Under the pieces are notes generated by a model. It ran no database searches, was not told where the DNA came from, and was given only the letters and a program-made list of their open reading frames with translations. This document shows, piece after piece, positions 3,292 through 42,495 of a DNA stretch of 64,000 nt. This DNA comes from Thermoanaerobaculia bacterium (GTDB lineage: Bacteria; Acidobacteriota; Thermoanaerobaculia; Multivoradales; Multivoraceae): the NCBI GenBank assembly GCA_963666565.1, contig OY762911.1, positions 3,616,001 through 3,680,000 of the forward strand, written 5' to 3'. The first letter of the stretch is position 1, and the number at the start of each line of letters is the position of its first letter. The translations under genes and the position numbers were made by a program.

Positions 3292-6209
3292 AGATCCTCC
3301 GCGTCCAGGCCCACGACTTCGGCAAGCTGTCCGGCGCGCTGGACCTCGGTCCGGGGCTGACCGTCGTTCACGGCGCGAACGAAGCCGGCAAGTCGACCTG
3401 GCTGCAAGCGATCTTCGCCGGCCTCTGCGGCCGGCGGCGCGGACGCGGCGCGAACACGCTGGAAGAACGCGAGTTCGAGCGCCAGTACGAACCCTGGAAC
3501 GGGAACCCGTGGCGCGCGACGGTGAAGCTCCAGCTCGACGACGGACGCAGGATCGAGATCCAGCAGCGCGACCTGAAGGCGAAGGAGAGCGTCGCCCACG
3601 ACGCCGACACCGGCCGCGCGGTCGGCGACGAACTGATCTACCGCGGCAGCATCGACGGTTCGAGGTTCCTGGGACTCAACCGCCAGGTCATGCCCTCGAC
3701 TCTGGTCATCGCCCAGGGCGACATCCAGCGCCTCCGCGAGAAGAAGGGCGACGAAGCCTCGGCCCTCCGGGAGGAACTCCAGCGCGCCGCGGCCTCGGCC
3801 GGAGGCGCCGCCACCGCGGTGGAGGCGCTGAGCCGCCTGAAGAAGTACGCGAGCGATCAGGTCGGCACGGAGCGCCGCAACTCGACGAGGCCGCTGCAGC
3901 GCGCCATCGAGCGCATGGCCAGGGCCGGCGAGGAACTCGACGGGGGAAGAGCGCGCCACAGGGAACGGACGGAAATCGAGGACGGACTGCGGACGGCCCG
4001 CGACCGCGCGGAGACAGCGAAGAACCTGGTTCGCGACTGCACCCGCGTTCAGGCGAAGCGCAGGCTGGACGACGCCGACGCCCGTCTCGCCGAAATCGAC
4101 CGGTTGACCACGACGTTCCCCGACGGCCAGCCACCGGCCGGGTCGGACGAGGGACCGGACGCCGCGACGGCGAAGGAACTCCGCGAAGCGGCCTTCGAGT
4201 ACGGCAGGCGGCCCGAGGCGCCCGCCGACCTCGAAGGCCCCAGCGCCGACCGCATGGCCCGGGAACTGGCGGAACTTCCCGAGGCGGCCCGGGGCGACCG
4301 CGAACCGGCGCCCGAGGTGGCGGAAGCGGCCCGGAACTGGCGGGAAGCCCAGCAGGCCCGCGCCGTTCGGGAACGGCTCGGTCCCGGCGAGCCACCGGAG
4401 GCGGTCATCCGCAAGGCCGACGAACCGGCAGTCAGGCGCGCCCTCGCGGCGCTCGAACTGCCGCCCCCCGAAGGCCTCGACGCCGCGGAGCGGCGCGTCG
4501 CCGAGATGACCGAAGAGAACACGCTCTACCAGAAGCAGCTCGAAAAGGCTTCCGGCTTCGGCGGTTGGCCCTGGTGGGGCGCCACCGCGGGCAGTCTCCT
4601 GAGCGTCCTGGCGATGCTGGACCTGCTGCCGCGGGCGGCGGGAATCGCGGGAGCGCTTCTCCTCCTCGCCTGTTCCGTGCTGATCTACCGCGCACAGCGC
4701 CGAGTCCCCCGGCCCGATCGCGTTCCCAGCCACGAAGCGGCCGAGGAAGCGATGCAACTGCTCGACGCGAAGGCCGACCTCCGGGACCTCCGGCGCAAGC
4801 ACCGGACCCACGGGCGACAGACGGAGGCCGCCGCCCGCGGCCTGGAGTCCCTGGGCCTGCGTCCCGACGCGAACGCCGCCCGCGCCGCCCTGGACGCCCT
4901 CGGGCAGCGCGCGCGATGGGACCGTGAGCAAGCCATGTGGGAGCAGGCGGCGGCGGCCGCGCGCCGGGACGAGGCGGCGGCCGAGAGCGCCCTGCGCGCG
5001 GCGCTCGCCGGCCGTGGCGTGGAAGACGCCGAAGCGGGCGCGGCCGACCTGCTCGACCGCTACGAAGCGGATTGCCGCCGGAACCGGGCGCTCGCCTCCG
5101 GAACCGACCGGCGCGAGGCCCTCGGCGCCCGCGTGGAGGCCCGCCTGCAGATGGAGCAGGCGGCAACGCGGCAGCAGGAGCAGCGCCAGGCGGCCGAAAC
5201 GCGCTTCCGCAACGCCCTCGCCGCCGCCGGCTTCCCCGCCGACTCGACCGCGGAGTCGACCGCCTCTCCCGAGCGGTGGGCCGCCGACTGGCTGAAGCGG
5301 CGGGAGCGCCGTCTCGGCCGCCTGCGCACGGACTGGGAGCGGCTACGGAGCCTCCTCGGCGATCGGACACGCGAGGACATCGCGGCGGAACGCGACACGA
5401 TCGCCGCCGGCCTGACTGGGGGCGCCGAACCGGACGCCGCCCCGCCCGAACTCGAAGGACTGGGCGCCGACGCCCTGGAGCGGAAACTCGCCGAGGCGCG
5501 CGCCGAGGCCGCCGAGGCCGGCAACCAGGCCAGCAACCTGGAGGGCCGGCTCGCCGCCGAAGCGGAACTGCCCTCCCTCGCCGAACTGGAAGAAGAGCGG
5601 GCCGCCGCCGAGAGCGAAACGGCCCTCCTCCGACGCGCCGCCGCCGTGCTGGTGACGGCGCGGGAACACCTGGACGCGGCCCAGGACGAGGTCCACCGGA
5701 TGCTCGCGCCGGACCTGCGCGAGGCGCTCGCCAGGCGCCTGGGCCTCGTGACCGCCGGGCGTTACTCGAACGTCCGCATCGACCCCGAGGAAGGCCTGGA
5801 GGTCCGCCTGGAGGTGGAAGAGGGCATCTACCGGCCGGCCACCGAGCTGTCCCACGGCACCGTCGATCAGGTCTACCTGTTGCTCCGCATCGCGCTCGCC
5901 GAGGCCCTCGGCGACCGGACGGAGTCCGCGCCCCTCTTCCTGGACGACGCGACCGTCCACTGCGACACGGACCGCACGATGCGCTTCCTCGACCTGCTGC
6001 TCGAACTGAGCGAGGAGCGCCAGATCGTCGCCTTCAGCCAGGAGGAGGAGGTACGGGAGTGGGCCGCGGCGCGTCTCGCCGCGCAACCCCGGCACTGCCT
6101 GATCGAACTCGACGGGAACGGGCTGCCGGTTGGCGACGCCGGCGCCACGGAACCGCCGGCCGACGCTTCGCCGGACGCGGCCCCCGACGGGCAGCACTCG
6201 CTCCTATAA
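3288..6209 (+). CDS. YhaN/Rad50-like SMC-family ATPase with central transmembrane hairpin
   Basis: Walker A GANEAGKST, long coiled coils, signature LSHGT, Walker B LFLDD; ATGA overlap with the upstream nuclease. Confidence 0.88.
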   Translation: MKILRVQAHDFGKLSGALDLGPGLTVVHGANEAGKSTWLQAIFAGLCGRRRGRGANTLEEREFERQYEPWNGNPWRATVKLQLDDGRRIEIQQRDLKAKESVAHDADTGRAVGDELIYRGSIDGSRFLGLNRQVMPSTLVIAQGDIQRLREKKGDEASALREELQRAAASAGGAATAVEALSRLKKYASDQVGTERRNSTRPLQRAIERMARAGEELDGGRARHRERTEIEDGLRTARDRAETAKNLVRDCTRVQAKRRLDDADARLAEIDRLTTTFPDGQPPAGSDEGPDAATAKELREAAFEYGRRPEAPADLEGPSADRMARELAELPEAARGDREPAPEVAEAARNWREAQQARAVRERLGPGEPPEAVIRKADEPAVRRALAALELPPPEGLDAAERRVAEMTEENTLYQKQLEKASGFGGWPWWGATAGSLLSVLAMLDLLPRAAGIAGALLLLACSVLIYRAQRRVPRPDRVPSHEAAEEAMQLLDAKADLRDLRRKHRTHGRQTEAAARGLESLGLRPDANAARAALDALGQRARWDREQAMWEQAAAAARRDEAAAESALRAALAGRGVEDAEAGAADLLDRYEADCRRNRALASGTDRREALGARVEARLQMEQAATRQQEQRQAAETRFRNALAAAGFPADSTAESTASPERWAADWLKRRERRLGRLRTDWERLRSLLGDRTREDIAAERDTIAAGLTGGAEPDAAPPELEGLGADALERKLAEARAEAAEAGNQASNLEGRLAAEAELPSLAELEEERAAAESETALLRRAAAVLVTAREHLDAAQDEVHRMLAPDLREALARRLGLVTAGRYSNVRIDPEEGLEVRLEVEEGIYRPATELSHGTVDQVYLLLRIALAEALGDRTESAPLFLDDATVHCDTDRTMRFLDLLLELSEERQIVAFSQEEEVREWAAARLAAQPRHCLIELDGNGLPVGDAGATEPPADASPDAAPDGQHSLL

Positions 6210-6287
6210 TCCCGGCGCCATGTCTCCCACCGAACGCTCGGAGGACCACGCGGCGCCGACTCCGCCTCCGAGCGGGCCGCCCCATCC

Positions 6288-9200
6288 ATGCAACGTCTGC
6301 TGATCGCCAACCGCGGCGAGATCGCGGTGCGGATCGCCCGCGCGGCGATGGATCTCGGCATCGCCACCGTCGCCGTCTACTCCGAGGACGACGCCAACGG
6401 GCTCCACCTGCGGATCGCCGACGAGGCCGTGCCGCTCGGCGGCCGCGGCGTGCGGGCCTACCTGGACATCGAGGACGTCGTCGCCAGGGCCGCCGACGCG
6501 AACTGCGACGCGGTTCATCCGGGCTACGGATTCCTCGCGGAGAACGCGGAGTTCGCCGCCGCCTGCGCGGATGCAGGCATCGCCTTTGTCGGTCCGCGGC
6601 CGGAGGTCCTGGAGCTGTTCGGCGACAAGGGCCGGGCGCGCCGTGCTGCTTTCGACGCGGACGTGCCCGTCCTGCGCGGAACCGACGGCCCGACCAGCCT
6701 GGAGGAGACCCACGAGTTCTTCGCCGCCCTCGGCGAGGGCGGAGCGATGATCGTCAAGGCGCTGGCCGGAGGCGGCGGGCGCGGCGCCCGCATCGTCGAT
6801 GCGGCCGGCGACATCGAGCAGGCCTACGAGCGCTGCGCGTCCGAGGCGGAACGCGCCTTCGGAAGCGGAGGCCTCTACGTCGAGGAACTCGTCCCGCGCG
6901 CCCGCCACATCGAGGTCCAGCTTCTCGGCGACGAAGCCGGCGGCCTCGTCGACTTCGGCGAGCGGGAGTGCAGCGCCCAGCGCCGGCACCAGAAGGTGGT
7001 CGAGACGGCGCCCGCGCCGAACCTCCGCCCCGAGATCCGCCAGTCGATCGTCGACGCGGCCCTGCGCCTCGGCGGCGCCGCGAAGTACAACAGTCTCGGC
7101 ACCTTCGAGTTCCTCGTGGACGCGGCGACAAGCGGCGACGGCCCGTCCGCCGGGGCCGGCGGCCGCTTCGCCTTCATCGAGGCGAACGCCCGCCTCCAGG
7201 TCGAGCACACGGTGACCGAGGCGGTCACCGGCGTCGACCTGGTGCAGGCCCAACTGCGGGTCGCCCGCGGCGAGTCGCTCGCCGACCTCGCGCTCGACGA
7301 CCCGGACGCGCGCCGGACCCGCGGCTTCGCGATCCAGGCCCGCGTCAACCTGGAGACCCTGGACGCGGACGGCGCCGTGCGGCCGTCCTCCGGCGTCCTC
7401 GCCGCCTACGAGCCGCCGAGCGGTCCCGGCGTGCGCATCGACGGCTGCGGCTACGCCGGCTACGAGCCGAACCCGGCGTTCGACTCGCTGCTCGCCAAGG
7501 TGATCGCCCACTCGCCCTCGGACGACTTCGCCGCCGCCGTCAAGCGGGCCTCGCGCGCGCTCGACGAGTTCCGGATCGGCGGCCCGGACACGAACATTCC
7601 CTGGCTCCAGAGCGTGCTCGCGCATCCGGACTTCGAGGCGGGCCGCCTCTACACCCGGTGGCTCGACGACCACTCCGCCGAGCTGGCGGCGGCCGCCGGC
7701 AACGGGCGCAGGCCGCGCTTCGTCCCCGCCGGAGGTCCTGCCGCCGGCGGCGAGGCGGCCGTGCCGCCGGCGCCTCCCGCGGACGGCGCCCGCGACAGCG
7801 GTTTCGCCGGCGCCCGGGTCGACACGGCCGATCCCCTGGCCCTGTTCGCCTACGACCAGGAGACGAAGGCCGCGCAGTCCGGGCAGGCGGATCCGGCCGG
7901 CGGCGTCGACGCGGCGAGCCAGGCCGACGGCCCCGAAGGCGCCACCGGCGTCGCCGCGCCCATCCAGGGCACGATCGTCAGCATCGACGTCGAGGTGGGC
8001 GACGAGGTCTTGCGCGGCCAGCAGGTCGCCGTGATCGAGGCGATGAAGATGGAGCACGTGCTCCGCGCCGGCTGCAGCGGCGTCGTCAGGCAGGTCACGA
8101 TGGCTGCCGGCGACACGATCCGCGAGGGCTATCCGCTGGTCTTCGTCCAGGAAGCGGAAGGCGGCGAAGCCGCGGACGCCGCGGAGGAGATCGACCCGGA
8201 CTACATCCGGCCCGACCTTGAGGAGAACATCCGCCGCCACGCCTACACCCTGGACGAGAACCGGCCCGAGGCGGTCGCCCGGCGGCGCCGGTTCGGCTTC
8301 CGCACGCCGCGCGAGAACATCGAGCAGCTCGTCGACGCCGGCTCCTTCAAGGAGTACTGGCCGCTGATCGTGGCCCGCCAGCACCAGAAGTACAGCGACA
8401 AGAAGCTGCGGGAGTACACGCCCGCCGACGGCGTGGTCGCCGGCACCGCCTCGATCAACGGCGACCTCTTCGACGACGAGCGCTCGCGGGCGATGGTGCT
8501 CTCCTACGACTACACCGTGCTCGCCGGCACCCAGGGCGGCCGCAACCACTACAAGCAGGACCGGCTGTTCGACCTCGCCAACCGCTACATGCTGCCGCTC
8601 GTCTTCTTCACGGAGGGCGGCGGCGGCCGGCCGGGCGACGACTACACGGGGCCCCGGGTCGCCTTCGACACCTATACGTTCACCCAGTTCTCCAAGCTCT
8701 CCGGTCTCATTCCGCTGGTCGGCGTGAACAACGGCCGCTGCTTCGCGGGCAACACCGCCCTGCTCGCCTGTTGCGACGTCATCATCGCGACGAAGGCCTC
8801 GACCATCGCCATGGGCGGCCCCGCGATGATCGAGGGCGGCGGCCTGGGCATCTACACGCCGGAGGAGGTCGGCCCGATGTCCTTCCAGGTGCCGAACGGC
8901 GTGGTCGACATCCTGGTCGAGGACGAGGAAGAGGCGGTCGACGTGACGAAGAAGTACCTGTCCTACTTCCAGGGGCCGGTCGCGGAATGGGAGGCTCACG
9001 ACCAGCGGCCGCTCCGCCACGTGGTGCCGGAGAACCGGCTCCGGCTCTACGACATGCAGGAGATCGTCCACACGATCGCCGATGTCGGCTCGGTGCTCGA
9101 GATCCGGCCCAAGTTCGGAATCGGCGTGATCACCGCCCTCATCCGCGTCGAGGGCAGGCCGATGGGAGTGATCGCGAACAACCCCCACCACCTCGCCGGG

Positions 9201-9761
9201 GCGATCGACTCGGACGGGTCCGACAAGGGCGCCCGCTTCCTGCAGCTCTGCGACGCCTTCGACATCCCGGTGCTGAGCCTGATGGACTGTCCGGGCATCA
9301 TGGTCGGCCCCGACCACGAGCGGACCGCGCTTGTCCGCCACTGCGCGCGCATGTTCAACACCGGCGCGAACCTCTCCGTACCGCTGTTCGGCGTCGTCGT
9401 CCGCAAGGCCTACGGCCTGGGCGTGCAGGCGATGTGCGGCGCGAGCGCCCTGGTCGGCTTCTTCACGGTCGGCTGGCCGACAGCCGAGTTCGCCGGCATG
9501 AACATCGAGGGCGCGGTCAAGCTCGGCTACCGCAAGGAACTGGCGGCAATCGAGGATCCAGAGGAGCGCCGGCTGGAGTTCGAGCGCCGGGTCGAGGCCT
9601 CGTACGAGCGCGCCAAGGCGGTCAACGCGGCAGCCGGAGGCGGGCTCGACGACGTGATCGACCCGGCGGAGACGCGCTCCTGGATCGCCGAGAGCATGAA
9701 GCGGCTGCCGGCGCCGCCGCCCCGGACGGGCAAGAAACGGCCCTACATCGACACTTGGTAG
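6288..9761 (+). CDS. single-chain biotin-dependent acyl-CoA carboxylase (BC-BCCP-CT fusion)
   Basis: ANRGEIA, HPGYGFLAEN, GGGGRG, RLQVEH (BC); EAMKM biotinylation motif; GGGGRPGD and DCPGIMVG (CT). Confidence 0.93.
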   Translation: MQRLLIANRGEIAVRIARAAMDLGIATVAVYSEDDANGLHLRIADEAVPLGGRGVRAYLDIEDVVARAADANCDAVHPGYGFLAENAEFAAACADAGIAFVGPRPEVLELFGDKGRARRAAFDADVPVLRGTDGPTSLEETHEFFAALGEGGAMIVKALAGGGGRGARIVDAAGDIEQAYERCASEAERAFGSGGLYVEELVPRARHIEVQLLGDEAGGLVDFGERECSAQRRHQKVVETAPAPNLRPEIRQSIVDAALRLGGAAKYNSLGTFEFLVDAATSGDGPSAGAGGRFAFIEANARLQVEHTVTEAVTGVDLVQAQLRVARGESLADLALDDPDARRTRGFAIQARVNLETLDADGAVRPSSGVLAAYEPPSGPGVRIDGCGYAGYEPNPAFDSLLAKVIAHSPSDDFAAAVKRASRALDEFRIGGPDTNIPWLQSVLAHPDFEAGRLYTRWLDDHSAELAAAAGNGRRPRFVPAGGPAAGGEAAVPPAPPADGARDSGFAGARVDTADPLALFAYDQETKAAQSGQADPAGGVDAASQADGPEGATGVAAPIQGTIVSIDVEVGDEVLRGQQVAVIEAMKMEHVLRAGCSGVVRQVTMAAGDTIREGYPLVFVQEAEGGEAADAAEEIDPDYIRPDLEENIRRHAYTLDENRPEAVARRRRFGFRTPRENIEQLVDAGSFKEYWPLIVARQHQKYSDKKLREYTPADGVVAGTASINGDLFDDERSRAMVLSYDYTVLAGTQGGRNHYKQDRLFDLANRYMLPLVFFTEGGGGRPGDDYTGPRVAFDTYTFTQFSKLSGLIPLVGVNNGRCFAGNTALLACCDVIIATKASTIAMGGPAMIEGGGLGIYTPEEVGPMSFQVPNGVVDILVEDEEEAVDVTKKYLSYFQGPVAEWEAHDQRPLRHVVPENRLRLYDMQEIVHTIADVGSVLEIRPKFGIGVITALIRVEGRPMGVIANNPHHLAGAIDSDGSDKGARFLQLCDAFDIPVLSLMDCPGIMVGPDHERTALVRHCARMFNTGANLSVPLFGVVVRKAYGLGVQAMCGASALVGFFTVGWPTAEFAGMNIEGAVKLGYRKELAAIEDPEERRLEFERRVEASYERAKAVNAAAGGGLDDVIDPAETRSWIAESMKRLPAPPPRTGKKRPYIDTW

Positions 9762-37061: not shown

Positions 37062-38525
37062 ATGACGAACCTGAAGACGTCGGCCGGACTTCGGCGCAAG
37101 CCCCCATCTCCTTCGGGCAGGCGCCGCTCTGTCGCTCGGCGCCGCTCTGTCGCTCGGCCCCGCTCCGCGTCGGCCCGCCGTGGCCTGGAGCTGGCCCCGC
37201 TTCTCGGGCTGCTCGCGTTCGCCGCGGGTCTCCCGGCCGCGGCACAGCGAGCCACCTATCCGCCGGAGGAGTTCGCCGAACGACGGGCGCGCCTCTGCGA
37301 GCGTCTGGGCGGCGGCGCGGTGCTCATGTTCTCGGAGACGATGCCGCGTTACGGCGCCCGTTTCCGCCAGGACCACGACTTCTTCTACCTGACCGGGTAC
37401 GAAGGGCGGAACGCGGTGCTGCTGCTTGAGGTCGACGGCTGCGAAGCCCGGCTCTACCTGCCCCACCAGGGCGACCGGGAGAAGTTCATCGACGGCCCGA
37501 ACTGGCTCTACGCGCCGGAGAAGGCCGAGGGAACCGGCTTCGAGGTCGACCACCTCGCCTACCTGCCCGAGCACTTGGCCCGGCGGCGCGGCCGGCTGCC
37601 GGGAGAGGCCGGGAAGCTCCTCTGGATGCGCCTCGGCGAGCGCGACGAACTCGACCTCGCCCGCAGCGAGAAGGGCCTCTACCTCGGCCGGCGCGAGCAG
37701 AACCCCTGGGGCGGCCAGCCCACCGAGCAGGCCCACCAGATCGCGACGATCCGCGGTCGCTACCCCTACGCCGAGCTGCGCGACCTGACGCCGCACCTCG
37801 ACCGGCTGCGGACGATCAAGACGCCGCGCGAGATCGAGATCCTGCGCCGCGCCGGCAAGGTCAGCGCCGACGGCATCGCGGCTGCCATCCGGGCGACCCG
37901 CGCCGGCGGCTGGGAGTACGAACTGGAGGCCGCCGCCAAGCACGTCTTCCTGAAGCACGGCGCCGAGATGGAGGCGTACCCTGCGATCGTCGGCTCAGGG
38001 CCGAACGGCCTGATCTGGCACTGGGTCAGGAACGACCGGCAGTTGCAGACCGGCGACCTCGTCGTCATGGACTACGGCGCCTCCTTCGCCTACATGACGA
38101 TGGACATCACGCGCACCTGGCCGGTTACGGGCAAGTTCGACGAAGTCCAGGAGCGCGCCTACCGCGCCGTGCTCGAAGCGCAGAAGGCGATCATCGCCGC
38201 CATGCGCCCGGGCGTCACCCGGCGCGAGACCGCCGCGATCTGCCGCGAGATCTACGACCGCTGGGGCTTCGAGGACAAGCCCGCCCACGGCGCCGGCCAC
38301 TTCGTCGGCCTCTCGGTCCACGACGTCGGCGACGGCTCCCTGCCCTTCGAGCCGGGCATGGTCATCGCCGTCGAGCCGATCCTCGAGATCCCCGAGCGGA
38401 ACATCCACATCCGCATCGAGGACACGGTGCTGATCACCGACGGCGAACCGGAGATCCTGAGCGCCGCAGTGCCGAAGGAAGTCGATGCTCTGCTGGCGCT
38501 GGTGGGTGGAGAACCCCCTCCCTGA
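37062..38525 (+). CDS. Xaa-Pro aminopeptidase (M24B) with signal peptide
   Basis: FFYLTG; metal ligands MDYG, DITRT, GHFVGLSVHD, VEP, RIED; start moved to ATG 37062. Confidence 0.9.
   Translation: MTNLKTSAGLRRKPPSPSGRRRSVARRRSVARPRSASARRGLELAPLLGLLAFAAGLPAAAQRATYPPEEFAERRARLCERLGGGAVLMFSETMPRYGARFRQDHDFFYLTGYEGRNAVLLLEVDGCEARLYLPHQGDREKFIDGPNWLYAPEKAEGTGFEVDHLAYLPEHLARRRGRLPGEAGKLLWMRLGERDELDLARSEKGLYLGRREQNPWGGQPTEQAHQIATIRGRYPYAELRDLTPHLDRLRTIKTPREIEILRRAGKVSADGIAAAIRATRAGGWEYELEAAAKHVFLKHGAEMEAYPAIVGSGPNGLIWHWVRNDRQLQTGDLVVMDYGASFAYMTMDITRTWPVTGKFDEVQERAYRAVLEAQKAIIAAMRPGVTRRETAAICREIYDRWGFEDKPAHGAGHFVGLSVHDVGDGSLPFEPGMVIAVEPILEIPERNIHIRIEDTVLITDGEPEILSAAVPKEVDALLALVGGEPPP
37121..37158 (+). 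repeat. perfect 18-bp tandem duplication in the peptidase N-region
   Basis: GCGCCGCTCTGTCGCTCG x2, encoding RRSVAR-RRSVAR. Confidence 0.8.
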
Positions 38526-39798
38526 CGAGCCGAGCCACCAGGGTCAGCTTTCCCCCGGCATCCAGGCAGTCGGGCAGATCCTCGATGGCGAACTCGTCAG
38601 CCGTCGTCGCGAACCGGAGCGCCGGCCACACGCCGGCCGGCAGCCTGAGTTCCCGGCCACCGAACCGGAGGAGGCACGACTCCCCGTCCGTCACGGCTTC
38701 GGTAAGCAGCCCGGCCCGGCGCCTTACCCGCGAGCGGGGCGTCAGCCGGTCTCCGTGGAGCCGCTGGCTGAGCAGGTCCGTGAACAGGGGTACGTCGGCG
38801 GCGAGGACCTCGTCCGCGAAGCGGCGCCACACGACCTCGGCATCGAATCGCGACTGCACGAACGCCAGCTTCTCGCCGAACAGGCGCTCTCGCTCGGCCA
38901 GGGGGAACTCCTCGCGAGCGAAGTCGCGAGGAAGATTCCGGCGCAGCGATTCTTCCTCGAGCGCCGCCGCGGCGACGCTCTCGACGAGGAACTCGGCCCA
39001 CGTGAACGCCGTGAGCCCGAGCGTGACGTGCAACGACGTCTGCCCTGTCGAACGGGCCGAGTGCATCAGACCTCGTGGAAGGTAGAGGGCGCTGCCCGGG
39101 CCGAGCTCGAACTCCTCGCTGACGTCGCCGGGAGGCGTACCGCGTTCGAAGCCCTGGCCCCGGAGTGGCAGTTTCACCTTGGTGTCGTAGATCGACCACC
39201 GCTTGGTGCCGCTGATCTGCAACACGAAGACGTCGTGGGTGTCCCAATGCGGGGCGAACCCCTGCGCCTCGGGCGGCGTGAGATACACGTTGGTCTGGGC
39301 CCGCGACGAGAAGCGCCGTCCGAGCGCGCCGCACAACCGAGCCAGCGTCGGTACGCGCGTTTGAAGCTGGTTGAAGATGACGGTCGCGCCGTCGTCGAAG
39401 TGCCTGGCGACCTCAAGCGGCTGGACCCTGCCGGCGTCGTTCGCGTACTCGCGGGAGGCAACGTCACCGTCGGCACGAATCAGCTTGATGTCGCGATGAC
39501 CGGCCGAGTGGGTGCCGAGCACGGTGTCGAGGTCGCTCACCGAGAGCAGCCCGGCGTAGTACGCCGGCGCGTCGCGCCGGATGTGAAGAAACCGTTGCTC
39601 GTAGTAGTCGTTCTCGAACTCCGCCGGCGGCAGCGGATCGAGGAGCCAGGCGAACCAGTCGCGGTCGTGACGTCCGACCGCCCGCGGTCGGGCGCTCGGA
39701 CCGTGACGCTGGTGACGCGCGGACGCGCCGCCAGGGTTCGCCGATCCCGGCCCGGTGTGGTCCGTCGTCATCCGGGCGCTTCCTGCGTCGTGGTCCAT
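38434..39798 (-). CDS. JmjC/cupin_4 Fe(II)/2-oxoglutarate oxygenase (NO66/YcfD-like protein hydroxylase)
   Basis: NVYLTPP.AQGFAPHWDTHDVFVLQISGTKRW...LYLPRGLMH (HxD...H triad plus Lys); C-terminal winged-helix-like LVARLVREG. Start uncertain (39798 or 39771). Confidence 0.88.
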   Translation of the reverse strand: MDHDAGSARMTTDHTGPGSANPGGASARHQRHGPSARPRAVGRHDRDWFAWLLDPLPPAEFENDYYEQRFLHIRRDAPAYYAGLLSVSDLDTVLGTHSAGHRDIKLIRADGDVASREYANDAGRVQPLEVARHFDDGATVIFNQLQTRVPTLARLCGALGRRFSSRAQTNVYLTPPEAQGFAPHWDTHDVFVLQISGTKRWSIYDTKVKLPLRGQGFERGTPPGDVSEEFELGPGSALYLPRGLMHSARSTGQTSLHVTLGLTAFTWAEFLVESVAAAALEEESLRRNLPRDFAREEFPLAERERLFGEKLAFVQSRFDAEVVWRRFADEVLAADVPLFTDLLSQRLHGDRLTPRSRVRRRAGLLTEAVTDGESCLLRFGGRELRLPAGVWPALRFATTADEFAIEDLPDCLDAGGKLTLVARLVREGVLHPPAPAEHRLPSALRRSGSPVRRR

Positions 39799-39842
39799 CG
39801 TGGTTCGTTCTCGCGCATTGGCTCCGGCAATCGGGCCGCAGC

Positions 39843-39908
39843 TTGACACCCAAGGCCCGCATCTCTACCATACCGGACTCAGTCGGTCTCATTTTCCGAA
39901 CTCAGGAG
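39843..39908 (+). promoter_or_regulatory. near-consensus sigma70 promoter and RBS of the small Tat-lipopeptide gene
   Basis: TTGACA(39843)-17 bp-TACCAT(39866); AGGAG at 39904-39908; direct repeat CCG(G/A)ACTCAG at 39873 and 39896. Confidence 0.75.
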
Positions 39909-39915
39909 CAAGGTC

Positions 39916-40164
39916 ATGGGCAGATCCGAGAACAGCGAGCCTGAAGTCAATCGTCCCGGCACGCCGATGTCGCTGACGGACGAGGACATCGCCACTGTCC
40001 GAGTCGATCGCCGCTCGTTCCTTTCTCGCGCGGTCGCGGTCGGATCGCTCGCGGCGGCCGCCGCCTTGACGACGGCCTGCCCCGGCGGGACCGACTCCGA
40101 CGGCGAGGGCGACGCCGCTGCCCCGGCCGAATCCGAGCAGGCGACGGACTCCGATCAGCAGTAG
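39916..40164 (+). CDS. small Tat-signal lipopeptide with acidic 28-aa mature part
   Basis: Own promoter and RBS; DRRSFL twin-arginine motif, hydrophobic stretch, lipobox-like TTAC; mature CPGGTDSDGEGDAAAPAESEQATDSDQQ. Confidence 0.8.
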   Translation: MGRSENSEPEVNRPGTPMSLTDEDIATVRVDRRSFLSRAVAVGSLAAAAALTTACPGGTDSDGEGDAAAPAESEQATDSDQQ

Positions 40165-40169
40165 AAGCG

Positions 40170-41312
40170 CTGTCCCTGCGCAGGGCGATCTTCTGGATCC
40201 ATCTGGCGGTCGGCGTCGCCGCCGCCGTCGTTGTCCTCATGCTGGCGGTGACCGGCGTGATCCTCACCTACGAGGCGCAGCTCAACGAATGGGCGCTGCG
40301 CGACTATCGCGCGGACCCGCCCTCCCCGGGCGTCGCGCCGCTCGGGCTCGACGACTTGATCGCGCGCGTCTCAGGCGGGCCGGCCGCCGGTCTCGTCACT
40401 TCCGCCGCGTTGCACAGGGATCCGCGACAGCCGGCGGTCGTCGGGCTCGACGATGGCGCCACCGTCTATGTCGACCGCTTCACCGGCGAGCGGCTGGGCA
40501 ACGGCGACACGCGGACGCGACGCTTCCTCCGCGGCGTCATGCACTGGCACCGGTGGTTCGCCCTCGACGGGGAGCACCGGATCATCGGCCGGACGGCGGT
40601 GGCAATCGCCAACCTCGGGTTCCTGTTTCTGCTCGTCAGCGGGGTCTACCTCTGGTGGCCGTCGACCCGCAGCCGCGCCGCCTGGAAACACGCCCTGTGG
40701 TTTCGGCCGCGCCTCAGGGGACGGGCGCGCGACTACAACTGGCACAAGGTGATCGGCTTCTGGTCGGCCGTTCCGCTCGTCATCATCGTCTTCAGCGGGG
40801 CCACCATCTCGTATCAATGGGCCGCCGACCTCGTCCATCGGCTGGCGGGCGACACGCCGCCGTTTCAGCAGTCGCCGCGGCCGCTGTCGGACGCGCGGGA
40901 GACTCCCTCCGTCGCGCCGGACCCGGTGACCCCGCTCTTCGAGCTGCAGGCACTGGCCGCGCAGGCCGCCGCCGAGACGCCCGGATGGCGGACGCTCACG
41001 ATCGACCTTCCCGAGGCGATTCACGATCCCGTCGTGGTCACGGTCGACCGCGGGACGGGCCGCCAGCCGTCGAAGCGCGAGGACCTGCTGTTCGACCGGG
41101 CGACCGGCGAACTGGTCGGGCGCGCCGGCTATCCGACCTTCACGCGCGGCTTCAAGATTCGCCGTTGGCTGCGGTTTGCCCACACCGGAGAGGTGTACGG
41201 CGTGGTCGGGCAGACGATCGCCGGCCTCGTGTCCCTCGGCGTAGCCGTCCTGGTCTGGACCGGTCTCGCGATGAGCTGGCGCCGTTTCTTCGGCCGCACC
41301 GGCCGGACCTGA
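40170..41312 (+). CDS. PepSY-associated TM helix protein (iron-uptake/ferric reductase-like)
   Basis: LRRAIFWIHLAVG, VYVDRFTGE, MHWHRW, SGVYLWWP, YNWHKVIG, LRFAHTGE; conserved His residues. The first helix lies upstream of the first ATG (40239). Confidence 0.88.
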   Translation: MSLRRAIFWIHLAVGVAAAVVVLMLAVTGVILTYEAQLNEWALRDYRADPPSPGVAPLGLDDLIARVSGGPAAGLVTSAALHRDPRQPAVVGLDDGATVYVDRFTGERLGNGDTRTRRFLRGVMHWHRWFALDGEHRIIGRTAVAIANLGFLFLLVSGVYLWWPSTRSRAAWKHALWFRPRLRGRARDYNWHKVIGFWSAVPLVIIVFSGATISYQWAADLVHRLAGDTPPFQQSPRPLSDARETPSVAPDPVTPLFELQALAAQAAAETPGWRTLTIDLPEAIHDPVVVTVDRGTGRQPSKREDLLFDRATGELVGRAGYPTFTRGFKIRRWLRFAHTGEVYGVVGQTIAGLVSLGVAVLVWTGLAMSWRRFFGRTGRT

Positions 41313-41388
41313 CGGCCCACGTCCCCCATGCAACGCGGGCCGCCGCGCCTTCCCGCCGGCCCAGGAACTGCGGAGACGGATTCGAAGC

Positions 41389-42495
41389 CTACTCGGCGCC
41401 GGTGCTGGCGCCGCTCAGGGCCTCCGACTCGAGGAGGCGGGCGCCGCGGAGGGTGCCGCCCATCGAGTAGTTGCCTTCGTGGCAGGCGTACTCGTAGACG
41501 AGGCCGTCGGCGGCCTTCCACAGGTACTCGCCGGTCCACGGCGCTTCCCAGACGGTGTCGTCCTCGACGGTGAAGTTGTAGATCACGTTGCCATCGTGCT
41601 GCACGGAGAAGCGCTCGACGACGTGGGTGTTCTCGGAACCGCCGCGGAAGCCGCGTCCGCCGACGCGGAAGTTCGTCGTGTCGACGACGAGGGTGTCGCC
41701 TTCCCACCAGCCGATCGAGTCGCCCAGCCACTTCGTGACCTCGGGACCCGGATGCTCCGAGTTCAGGCGCACGATGCGGGCGTCGTGGATCATCTCGAGC
41801 AGGATCATGACGTGAGTCTCGGTCTGCACGATCCGCTTGTAGTTGTTGTACAGGCTCGGGAACGTCGGCGCGGCGCCGGTGAAGCCGGCGAGGCAGCGCT
41901 CGCTCGTGGGGAGCGACTCGGGGCCGTCGTAGGGGCCGGGGCCGTCGTGCTCGACCCACCAGGCCGTTCCGTCATTCGGACGGATGAGGCCGGCGAGAGC
42001 GGTCCTCATCCGCTGCTGCGCCGCCGCCGTCATGGACGGCATCCGGCCGTTCGGCGGATCGATGATGATCGAGGTCGGGATCTGCCCGTCGACCAAGTAG
42101 GTGTCGGTTCCCCGGTCGATCCAGAACAGGTTGTAGCCGCCGACGTTGCCGGCGCCGAACTCGTTGCCGCCGCCGGCGGTGTGTTCCAGACCGACGACCT
42201 TGGCCCCGCCCTCGGGCGGCGCCTCGCGGTTCGCGTCCGACTGGGCGACCGCGCCTTCCTGGATCAGCCGCTCTTCCTCCGCGATCTCCGCGGCTTCCTC
42301 GGGCGTCAGGTACGCCCGCTCGCCGAGATGCACCGGCCGCTCCAGCGGAGTCAGCGTGGCGGCGTCGTAGGTGCCGGTCAGGTCGGGACGGCCGCTCGCG
42401 GTTCGTGGAATGTCGTCGCTCTGCGCGGCCAGGGCCGGGGCGAAGGCGAGGGCCAGAACGAGAACCGAAGACAGGCTTGCGGTGCGCTTCATCAT
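41389..42495 (-). CDS. conserved secreted hypothetical protein
   Basis: Signal peptide; PRTASGRPDLTG, ERCL, GDSIGWWEGDTLVVDTTNF, YEYACHEGNY motifs of a widespread uncharacterised family. Confidence 0.8.
   Translation of the reverse strand: MMKRTASLSSVLVLALAFAPALAAQSDDIPRTASGRPDLTGTYDAATLTPLERPVHLGERAYLTPEEAAEIAEEERLIQEGAVAQSDANREAPPEGGAKVVGLEHTAGGGNEFGAGNVGGYNLFWIDRGTDTYLVDGQIPTSIIIDPPNGRMPSMTAAAQQRMRTALAGLIRPNDGTAWWVEHDGPGPYDGPESLPTSERCLAGFTGAAPTFPSLYNNYKRIVQTETHVMILLEMIHDARIVRLNSEHPGPEVTKWLGDSIGWWEGDTLVVDTTNFRVGGRGFRGGSENTHVVERFSVQHDGNVIYNFTVEDDTVWEAPWTGEYLWKAADGLVYEYACHEGNYSMGGTLRGARLLESEALSGASTGAE

Follow-up and report, generated by a model that had tools for sequence, protein, structure and literature searches.

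A mobile oxygenase-peptide-reductase cassette of Acidobacteriota in which a twin-arginine signal peptide may double as a biosynthetic leader

What would an oxygenase of the kind that modifies ribosomes be doing next to a gene for a very short peptide that appears to carry its own export signal? This question is raised by a locus in a 64,000-nt, high-GC chromosome segment of a Thermoanaerobaculia bacterium of the phylum Acidobacteriota (genome coordinates G000:C1:3616001-3680000; hereafter the window). Three genes lie together there: a gene for a JmjC_2 Fe(II)/2-oxoglutarate (2OG) oxygenase of the ribosomal oxygenase (ROX)/NO66 type (38434-39771, minus strand), an 82-amino-acid open reading frame (ORF; 39916-40164 including the stop codon, plus strand) and a gene for a PepSY_TM membrane protein, a putative di-haem reductase (40170-41312, plus strand). 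The trio is flanked by a convergent M24 aminopeptidase gene and a gene for a secreted protein of an unknown family. An original prediction, made from the letters of the window, had proposed that the 82-amino-acid product is a metal-binding lipopeptide, ribosomally made, hydroxylated by the oxygenase before export and relieved of its metal by the PepSY_TM protein. Following up this proposal, we find it likely that the oxygenase is paired with the peptide as its substrate, in the manner seen for ribosomally made peptides that are modified post-translationally (RiPPs), with the n-region of a twin-arginine translocation (Tat) signal as the candidate recognition element. The reading in which this n-region would serve as the leader and the JmjC protein as a tailoring hydroxylase is well supported, because the two genes are linked, members of the same enzyme clade lie in RiPP clusters, the enzyme has an RRE-like (RiPP recognition element-like) domain and the leader defines a family with variable cores.

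The 82-amino-acid ORF is a genuine and conserved gene. At E ≤ 0.01 there are 92 homologues of it, with lengths of 68-141 amino acids, and among 60 distinct sequences the differences from the leader block of the window number 339, 221 and 779 at codon positions 1, 2 and 3, a pattern that therefore reflects selection on the peptide reading frame. The near-consensus promoter and ribosome-binding site that had been predicted for this ORF are present. In a promoter scan of 39600-41600, the sigma-70-type promoter TTGACA-17-TACCAT (39843-39871, plus strand) was the sole promoter-like site (shuffled sequences gave a mean of 0.1), and the AGGAG ribosome-binding site (39904-39908, plus strand) lies 7 nt 5´ of the ATG. 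In an alignment of 18 diverse loci the -35, the -10, GGAG and the ATG are all kept, and the GGAG core is invariant. Additionally, two metatranscriptome runs from a single study yielded RNA-library contigs of 364 and 379 nt that correspond to 39893-40288 in a relative that is ~95% identical. As an RNA library may contain DNA, these contigs only hint at expression of the peptide gene; beyond this stretch the two runs yielded one short piece (39668-39711), elsewhere neither JmjC nor the remainder of PepSY_TM was covered, and contigs of this kind can show neither absence nor expression level. An ESM Atlas look-up of the peptide returned unnamed small clusters only. In the alignment of the intergenic region (39772-39915), a short hairpin-like element of the GAGACTCAnTCTC type is conserved immediately 3´ of the -10, and next to the JmjC start most relatives have the palindrome GAGCGCTC, in place of which the window has GGGCGCTT. 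Both the hairpin-like element and the palindrome could be regulatory sites.

The anatomy of the product also agrees with what had been described, that is a long n-region, RRSFL, a Cys and a 28-residue mature part in which eight residues are acidic and TDSD occurs twice. As delimited by the alignment and a profile, the leader (residues 18-36; 39967-40023, plus strand) consists of the n-region (M/T)SLTDEDI(A/T)TVRVD followed by RRSFL; in the window the n-region ends with SLTDEDIATVRVD, directly before RRSFL. Next comes a hydrophobic region (40024-40080, plus strand) up to Cys55, with LTTA-C as a permissive lipobox, and past Cys55 lies the acidic core PGGTDSDGEGDAAAPAESEQATDSDQQ (40081-40161, plus strand), in which TDSD is encoded at 40090-40101 and 40144-40155. 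Counted from Cys55, the 28-residue part has eight acidic and no basic residues, with TDSD at residues 59-62 and 77-80. L20, R32, R33, S34, F35, R38, G43 and C55 are invariant in a 36-sequence alignment of the peptide, for which the family consensus is SLTDEDITTVRVDRRSFLSRAVAAGS...ALTAACPGGTDSDG followed by a variable count of (Q)ATDSD units. Relatives have from one to more than six such units, one of them with an 18-bp unit repeated 4.6 times; Tandem Repeats Finder detected no array of this sort in the peptide gene of the window.

Tat signals have the consensus (S/T)RRxFLK and a moderately hydrophobic region, and the segment DRRSFLSR of the peptide fits this description. It is followed by a 16-residue hydrophobic stretch rich in Ala, Gly and Ser (AVAVGSLAAAAALTTA), and RRSF is invariant in 36/36 sequences. 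The consensus of a lipobox is L-[AST]-[GA]-C. The window has L-T-T-A-C and the family consensus is L-T-A-A-C, such that positions -1 and -2 fit a lipobox, and the Cys is invariant in the Cys-bearing peptide types (36/36 in the main alignment). The genome encodes TatC, Lgt and LspA.

In bacteria, JmjC oxygenases of the ROX type are known for modifying ribosomes. The oxygenase of the window, which is transcribed divergently from the peptide gene, is a full-length enzyme of the NO66/MINA53 type with an intact HxD...H/K site. Its open frame (38434-39849) begins upstream with GTG at 39849, and, to judge from the homologues, the start is likely the ATG at 39771, which would give 445 amino acids. The match of the protein to PF08007 scores 92.1 bits, above the gathering score of 22 (E 2.6e-26), and H175, D177, H237 and K190 (numbered for 445 amino acids) are invariant in 25 JmjC sequences and align with the metal and 2OG site of NO66 (HYD...H and K), as expected from the divergent enzyme with an intact triad that had been predicted. 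Among solved relatives, the best match is human NO66 (E 1.8e-36), followed by MINA53 (1.3e-30), B. subtilis YxbC (1.8e-11) and E. coli YcfD (4e-5). A grouping with the YcfD/L16 hydroxylases had been named in advance as a finding that would speak against a role in peptide modification. The enzyme is a member of the ROX family, yet much closer to NO66/MINA53 than to YcfD, and it is no housekeeping gene, as described below. At its 3´ end the JmjC gene overlaps the convergent M24 peptidase gene by 92 bp (38434-38525; the M24 gene ends at 38525), and its open frame extends ~20 codons beyond the position of the stop codon in close relatives.

The structural comparison adds a candidate means of leader recognition. 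An AlphaFold2 model of the oxygenase, of moderate quality (mean predicted local distance difference test score, pLDDT, 66.6), was aligned over its full length to NO66 by Foldseek (441-460 columns). When modelled alone, the C-terminal 108 residues reached a pLDDT of 79.8 and matched the C-terminal winged helices of MINA53 and NO66 at Z 10-12.3. After the ROX entries, the matches to this domain were nearly only RRE domains, at Z 5.8-7.7, a range (Z below 8) that may reflect a common arrangement: PbtF (7.7), MccB (7.2), McbB (7.1), PqqD (7.0) and TbiB1 with leader (7.0), with further RRE-type matches to TigE, ThcOx, LynD, TruD, NisB, MibB and a lasso B1 protein. Foldseek matched the domain to RRE domains with E values of 0.03-0.14. 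This is in line with a published description of RRE-like folds fused to PF08007 and of bacterial homologues in RiPP-like contexts (PMC12710340). Finally, a complex of the oxygenase and the peptide, a check that had been suggested with the original prediction, was modelled with both partners given as alignments. The score was 0.52, and the best of three controls scored 0.00. Of 80 solved complexes, 58 attain the mark used for this score, as do 2 of 110 mismatched pairs, and at scores of 0.60 or less there are 7 of the 80 solved complexes together with both mismatches that passed. Contacts agreed to at least 54% between runs and partner pLDDT was at least 50; no interface was reported. The prediction lends weak support to binding of the peptide.

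Linkage of the genes was examined in 63 species-level loci (L021-L083), collected by a pattern scan with one genome per species. By tblastn, the JmjC gene adjoins the peptide gene in 62 of them, 60 with divergent orientation and two (L081 and L082) with JmjC upstream on the same strand; the single exception is L080, with a peptide gene and no JmjC gene. A PepSY_TM gene is located 3´ of the peptide gene in 54 of the loci, and two that lack it by tblastn (L047 and L049) carry a diverged PepSY_TM gene by Pfam. Clustering of the ORFs in the same loci placed JmjC in 59, PepSY_TM in 56 and the next family, that of a 368-amino-acid neighbour in the window, in 16; beyond the trio, no neighbourhood gene was conserved. 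Conserved linkage of the three genes across genomes had been proposed as a check, and these counts (62/63 for JmjC and 54-56/63 for PepSY_TM) bear it out. A family of pyrroloquinoline quinone (PQQ)-dependent dehydrogenases occurs in 7 of the 63 loci by ORF clustering, and several cassettes have such a gene no more than a few kb away (L047, 8807-10135; L049, 8676-10076; L092, 5-532).

Within the genus, the peptide was detected at E ≤ 1e-5 in 13 of 37 genomes, the weaker matches being Tat-signal-like stretches within open frames of 374-687 amino acids. The oxygenase was detected in 14 of the 37, the same 13 and one more (G031), in which a diverged peptide gene precedes the JmjC gene. This distribution supports joint inheritance of the peptide and JmjC genes as an accessory pair. 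JmjC_2 and PepSY_TM are each encoded exactly once in the genome of the window, in both cases at this locus. In two genomes without the cassette (G033 and G013), the fumarase, M24, 368-amino-acid protein and dipeptidase flanks are kept, and the cassette site is occupied by ADP-ribosylglycohydrolase and hydrolase genes. Across evenly sampled genomes of the phylum, only 10 of 401 had the oxygenase at E ≤ 1e-20, and JmjC copies that are ~80% identical occur in another family of the phylum. Since it is missing in 23 of the 37 genus genomes and 391 of the 401 phylum genomes, the oxygenase is no housekeeping ribosome modifier; the cassette is accessory and mobile. Phage-type integrase genes lie beside the diverged peptide-JmjC cassettes L013 (182-1192) and L084 (4433-5758), and the orphan peptide gene of L080 lies beside a HEPN/DUF499 gene (6532-9696); these neighbours and the orphan gene likewise point to mobility. 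Related loci are annotated as Acidobacteria, Vicinamibacterales, Holophagales, Bryobacterales and Candidatus Multivorans, and many of the records are presumably marine-sponge metagenome bins, to judge from their titles. The peptide and PepSY_TM genes of L071 are separated by the gene for a group II intron reverse transcriptase/maturase (5798-7342). The JmjC copy of L091 (3291-4500, genome G399), 53-55% identical, is divided between two reading frames, and a leader peptide is missing from its vicinity; we read it as the probable remnant of a decaying cassette.

The more distant relatives connect this pair to RiPP biosynthesis. Six JmjC loci at 29-38% identity were examined (L085-L090), and in four of these the JmjC gene adjoins RiPP enzyme genes: a LanC-like gene in L086 (2773-5340), LanB N- and C-terminal domains and an ATP-binding cassette exporter in L087 (65-6944), Lant_dehydr_C in L088 (1442-4087) and a radical S-adenosylmethionine enzyme in L090. 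The JmjC_2 homologues of the lanthipeptide-type clusters (L086-L088) are at 32-35% identity. Just upstream in L088 there is also a small precursor-like ORF with the look of a GG-type leader and a core rich in Cys and Trp. Beside the JmjC gene of L085, neither a RiPP enzyme nor a leader-homologous peptide was found. The last of the six, L089 (2781-5389), comes from another family of the phylum and has a JmjC protein that is 38% identical. A same-strand upstream peptide gene there encodes a leader, NLTDEQIVTERKLGRRSFL, that is homologous to that of the window (hhalign probability 90.6%, E 1.3e-6), followed by a Lys-rich core with ADPD three times and no Cys. An ICMT/PEMT-family membrane methyltransferase gene follows the JmjC gene at this locus and may provide a second tailoring step.

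Between these extremes, the diverged cassettes L013, L081, L082 and L084 (JmjC 52-58% identical) and L092, the single contig found in metagenomes by a degenerate leader pattern, all pair JmjC with a peptide, which reads ...TV(R/K)xDRRSFL...AC...CDxD...CDxD. A profile of the leader block matched 87 representative clusters among 1.84 billion proteins, and in 84 of the 87 the protein has at most 200 amino acids. In the alignment of this wider family, R32 and R33 are invariant and L20, T27, S34, F35 and L36 nearly so, and the cores differ. There are at least four core styles (TDSD repeats, CDxD at both ends, D(V/I)TRxGDP repeats and Lys-rich DPD repeats), with a D-x-D element common to all family sequences inspected. 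A conserved leader with variable cores beside a dedicated enzyme is the RiPP pattern. As in RiPP clusters, a short precursor gene lies beside a modifying enzyme, and this pairing is conserved in 62 of the 63 loci as well as in L013, L081, L082, L084, L089 and L092.

The third gene of the cassette encodes a PF03929 protein (E 3.5e-49, 168.6 bits against a cut-off of 28.8, profile positions 1-295). FoxB, of the same family, is described as binding two b-haems via four conserved transmembrane His residues, with Arg and Lys side chains that contact the propionates (bioRxiv 10.1101/2021.01.28.428567), and CrpH as keeping the same His residues, with copper reduction as its proposed function (PMC13038864). 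Known PepSY_TM proteins reduce periplasmic ferric siderophores or have been proposed to act on copper (bioRxiv 10.1101/2021.01.28.428567; PMC13038864). In 53 distinct PepSY_TM sequences from the cassettes, H11, H127, H192 and H338 (numbered from a CTG at 40170) are invariant, as are Arg residues close to both ends of the protein and several Trp residues. Judged from the hydrophobic segments around them, the four His residues would be placed at membrane boundaries, two per membrane face, in positions like those of the FoxB haem ligands. No solved chain was matched by sequence at E ≤ 0.01, which makes the protein a member of a distant subfamily.

A PepSY_TM gene had been predicted to start 5 bp after the peptide stop codon. 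The matching frame does begin 5 nt past this stop, with the codon CTG (40170), and position 1 of the PF03929 profile corresponds to residue 9 of the frame read from 40167; a canonical start at this place was not found, and a start at 40239 would remove the invariant H11. Most homologues start with ATG (MSLRR...). In the window, a 20-nt deletion turned this ATG into CTG and brought the peptide stop to 5 nt upstream. A different deletion had the same effect in L003, L006 and L022, and a third lineage (L034, L037 and L043) has AAG at the position of the ATG, with the peptide stop overlapping. In the three ATG-less lineages, the distance to the stop of the peptide gene is 2-11 nt, the frame offset is identical, and the PepSY_TM frames are intact, with third-position differences in excess. 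The RNA-library contigs of the relative carry the ATG-type junction with the 20 nt. Together, these data suggest that translation of PepSY_TM is coupled to that of the peptide ORF by termination-reinitiation, in a way that can withstand the loss of a start codon, and such coupling would tie the reductase to the peptide. We also considered that the peptide and PepSY_TM form one frameshifted gene. This was rejected, as most homologues have a separate ATG, with gaps of 22-407 nt in any frame; a fusion would moreover invert the topology of the PepSY_TM protein.

The explanation that we favour is that of a mobile RiPP-like cassette, the 82-amino-acid product of which would be a precursor with a Tat signal peptide that doubles as leader. 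The cytoplasmic ROX-type JmjC enzyme would dock on the n-region by the RR motif, probably via the RRE-like C-terminal winged helix, and would hydroxylate the Asp-rich D-x-D core prior to export, most likely to beta-hydroxy-Asp. The Tat system would then export the peptide, with removal of the signal at the invariant Cys, probably accompanied by lipidation by Lgt and LspA. In the periplasm, the tethered acidic peptide would work with the co-translated di-haem PepSY_TM reductase, most likely by carrying a reducible metal, for instance Fe(III), that is discharged by the reductase. We give this chain as a whole, from RiPP-like cassette through Asp hydroxylation, export and tethering to reducible-metal carrier, somewhat less than an even chance of being correct. 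Its parts differ in strength. Lipidation of Cys55 is a matter of even chances. Asp as the residue modified by JmjC is a tentative assignment that falls a little short of this, because the nearest characterized enzymes act on His, Arg, ornithine (Orn) and Phe, even though Asp recurs across all cores and beta-hydroxy-Asp would be a chemically sensible ligand for a hard metal. A metal-handling role with PepSY_TM, as a tethered chelator plus reductase, is more doubtful still, since the link to a redox metal derives from PepSY_TM by itself, in the main type only and with no conserved uptake genes.

A number of observations weigh against this explanation. Both the modification of the peptide and its target residue are what we infer from gene content and sequence, and among the nearest characterized enzymes NO66 and MINA53 hydroxylate His, YcfD Arg, BipG Orn and CzlI Phe, none of them Asp. 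The RRE-like fold is common to all ROX enzymes, the Z scores of 6-8 are possibly those of a common arrangement, and for binding of the peptide the complex prediction is a weak argument. With respect to export, neither TAT_signal nor a lipoprotein family was assigned to the peptide by Pfam and NCBIfam (at E ≤ 0.01 there was only a sub-threshold match to CU044_5270), position -3 relative to the Cys is occupied by Thr and not by Leu, which is found at -4, and the Lys-rich relatives lack the Cys. With respect to metal, composition (eight acidic and no basic residues of 28) is the whole basis of the binding idea, and one related core type is Lys-rich. No TonB-dependent receptor, iron transporter or iron-uptake gene is conserved nearby in the 63 loci, a TonB-type barrel being found in only one Pfam-scanned neighbourhood (L067), and no Fur-box-like element was seen by eye in the conserved intergenic alignment of 18 loci. 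No PepSY_TM gene was detected in the sequence retrieved around L013, L081, L082, L084 and L089 (the L092 contig, of 2.9 kb, ends ~350 nt past the peptide, such that PepSY_TM cannot be judged there), and in the window PepSY_TM has no canonical start, with no ATG, GTG or TTG before 40239. Of the original prediction of a RiPP-like metallophore, then, the RiPP-like part is upheld by linkage, leader and enzyme clade, and the want of conserved TonB or iron genes speaks against a siderophore reading.

The alternative that survives best, although we regard it as somewhat unlikely, retains modification of the peptide by JmjC and drops the redox metal: the products would be Ca(2+)-type cation-binding, envelope or host-interaction modules, and PepSY_TM a lineage-specific accessory that, for example, keeps a metal site or the surroundings of the peptide reduced. 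It fits the observation that the JmjC-peptide pair is the invariant core of the cassettes, PepSY_TM being the component not found at the five loci just named and being replaced by the ICMT/PEMT-type methyltransferase in L089. Many cores are of the CDxD...CDxD or GDP/DPD type, which may resemble Asp-rich repeats that bind calcium, such as those of thrombospondin type 3, and the Lys-rich DPD cores are poor candidates for chelators. This account has more difficulty with the retention of PepSY_TM in 54-56 of the 63 main-type loci, with its apparent translational coupling to the peptide (stop-to-start gaps of 2-11 nt in three ATG-less lineages) and with the ferric-siderophore reduction, or proposed copper reduction, described for known PepSY_TM proteins (bioRxiv 10.1101/2021.01.28.428567; PMC13038864).

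If the peptide were instead an unmodified small acidic Tat lipoprotein, acting as an accessory subunit or metal chaperone of PepSY_TM, the oxygenase would act on another substrate, such as a ribosomal protein or the reductase, and would be linked by co-regulation only. The full ROX architecture of the enzyme, closest to the ribosomal hydroxylases NO66 and MINA53, and the weakly supportive complex prediction leave room for this, and in the pyoverdine system small accessory proteins are known to accompany PepSY_TM reductases. We consider it decidedly unlikely all the same: the oxygenase is missing from most genomes of the genus (23/37) and of the phylum (391/401), its gene is accompanied by that of a leader-bearing peptide even at loci where PepSY_TM was not detected, distant members of its clade lie in RiPP clusters, and the leader is more deeply conserved than the mature part. 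Very improbable, finally, is the idea that JmjC hydroxylates the signal peptide itself (for example the Arg or Asp of TVRVDRRSF), with Tat export gated by O2, Fe(II) or 2OG: the n-region and RR are indeed the most deeply conserved parts across JmjC partners down to 38% identity, with cores that change completely, and Arg-hydroxylating ROX and JmjC enzymes are known (YcfD), but leader conservation together with core variability is what RiPPs ordinarily show and suffices, D-x-D recurs in every core type, and a literature search on bacterial ribosomal oxygenases or RiPP precursors with twin-arginine signals gave no precedent.

Returning to the RiPP-like cassette, we compared it with known systems. 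The oxygenase shares with the ROX proteins NO66/RIOX1, MINA53/RIOX2 and YcfD/RoxA the domain family (PF08007), the HxD...H triad, the 2OG Lys and the three-domain structure (JmjC, helical and winged-helix domains). It differs in being accessory, horizontally mobile and paired with a small leader-bearing peptide gene, and the peptide of the window has no His. To our knowledge, BipG and CzlI are the only JmjC-class enzymes that have been tied to ribosomal peptide natural products. BipG, from the biphenomycin pathway, is a JmjC-type RiPP hydroxylase that acts on Orn (PMC12707348), and CzlI, from the curacozole pathway, is one that acts on Phe, with an activity that depends on sequences flanking the core (PMC11575548). 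In these cases too, the gene for a JmjC-class Fe/2OG enzyme lies beside a precursor peptide gene. Their clusters, however, hold further RiPP enzymes and ordinary leaders, whereas in the window JmjC would be the sole partner enzyme, the leader a Tat signal and the core a D-x-D repeat; this comparison was made by description, not by sequence.

Beta-hydroxy-Asp is an Fe(III) ligand, and lipid-tailed siderophores occur in marine bacteria. The Asp hydroxylases of siderophores and of the CinX type belong to 2OG oxygenase families other than JmjC. CinX is an Fe/2OG hydroxylase that acts on an Asp of a ribosomal peptide, cinnamycin (PMC11575548). Asp is the residue hydroxylated by CinX and in the beta-hydroxy-Asp siderophores, whereas in the window cassette its hydroxylation is a proposal from sequence. 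The PepSY_TM protein resembles FoxB, FpvG and CrpH in its family (PF03929), in four invariant His residues like the bis-His ligands of the two FoxB haems and in conserved Arg residues near both termini. In contrast to these proteins, it is encoded in an operon without a TonB-dependent receptor, its partner would be an encoded peptide rather than a siderophore-uptake system, and its frame reads from CTG. Chaperones of the TorD, DmsD and NapD type bind the n-region of a Tat signal until maturation is done. By analogy, a cytoplasmic protein would hold the long, conserved Tat n-region of the peptide. The chaperones differ in that they escort large cofactor enzymes and perform no modification, and binding of the peptide by JmjC has the weak backing of the complex prediction.

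A literature search, covering articles apart from their supplements, returned no paper that joins JmjC with PepSY or ribosomal oxygenases with twin-arginine signals. Nor did it return one that joins RiPP precursors with natural Tat leaders, the matching papers being about engineered display and lantibiotic machinery. JmjC tailoring of ribosomal peptides is already known, if young, and what would be new here is the ROX-type enzyme, the Tat signal as leader, the D-x-D cores and the coupled PepSY_TM. The most far-reaching version of our proposal is that of a Tat-leader RiPP in which a NO66-like ROX enzyme docks on the n-region and holds the RR motif until the Asp residues of the D-x-D repeats have been made into beta-hydroxy-Asp, after which the lipoprotein pathway would cut and acylate the product, giving a membrane-tethered, siderophore-like lipopeptide whose Fe(III) is discharged by the coupled PepSY_TM, with the CDxD, GDP and Lys-rich DPD family as a large unrecognized class of Tat-exported hydroxylated peptides. 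In this full form we think it unlikely.

The gene on the far side of the trio (41389-42495, minus strand) encodes the 368-amino-acid secreted protein mentioned above, for which no Pfam and no PDB match was found. Its family has ~30 matches in the genome of the window, some of them in tandem (for example G000:C1 4388391-4399779). We considered it as a fourth component of the cassette and rejected it, given those ~30 matches and its occurrence in only 16 of the 63 loci; because of its abundance in this genome alone, its presence at the locus is incidental.

For the biology of the NO66-like enzymes, the cassette would provide a bacterial ROX with a small, dedicated and easily tested peptide substrate, and it would show that a secretion signal can double as a biosynthetic leader. 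It would also open a family of at least 87 sequence clusters with members that are short enough to synthesize. If the metal reading is true, the cassette adds a genetically encoded, surface-tethered module of chelator plus reductase to the routes of metal acquisition in Acidobacteriota.

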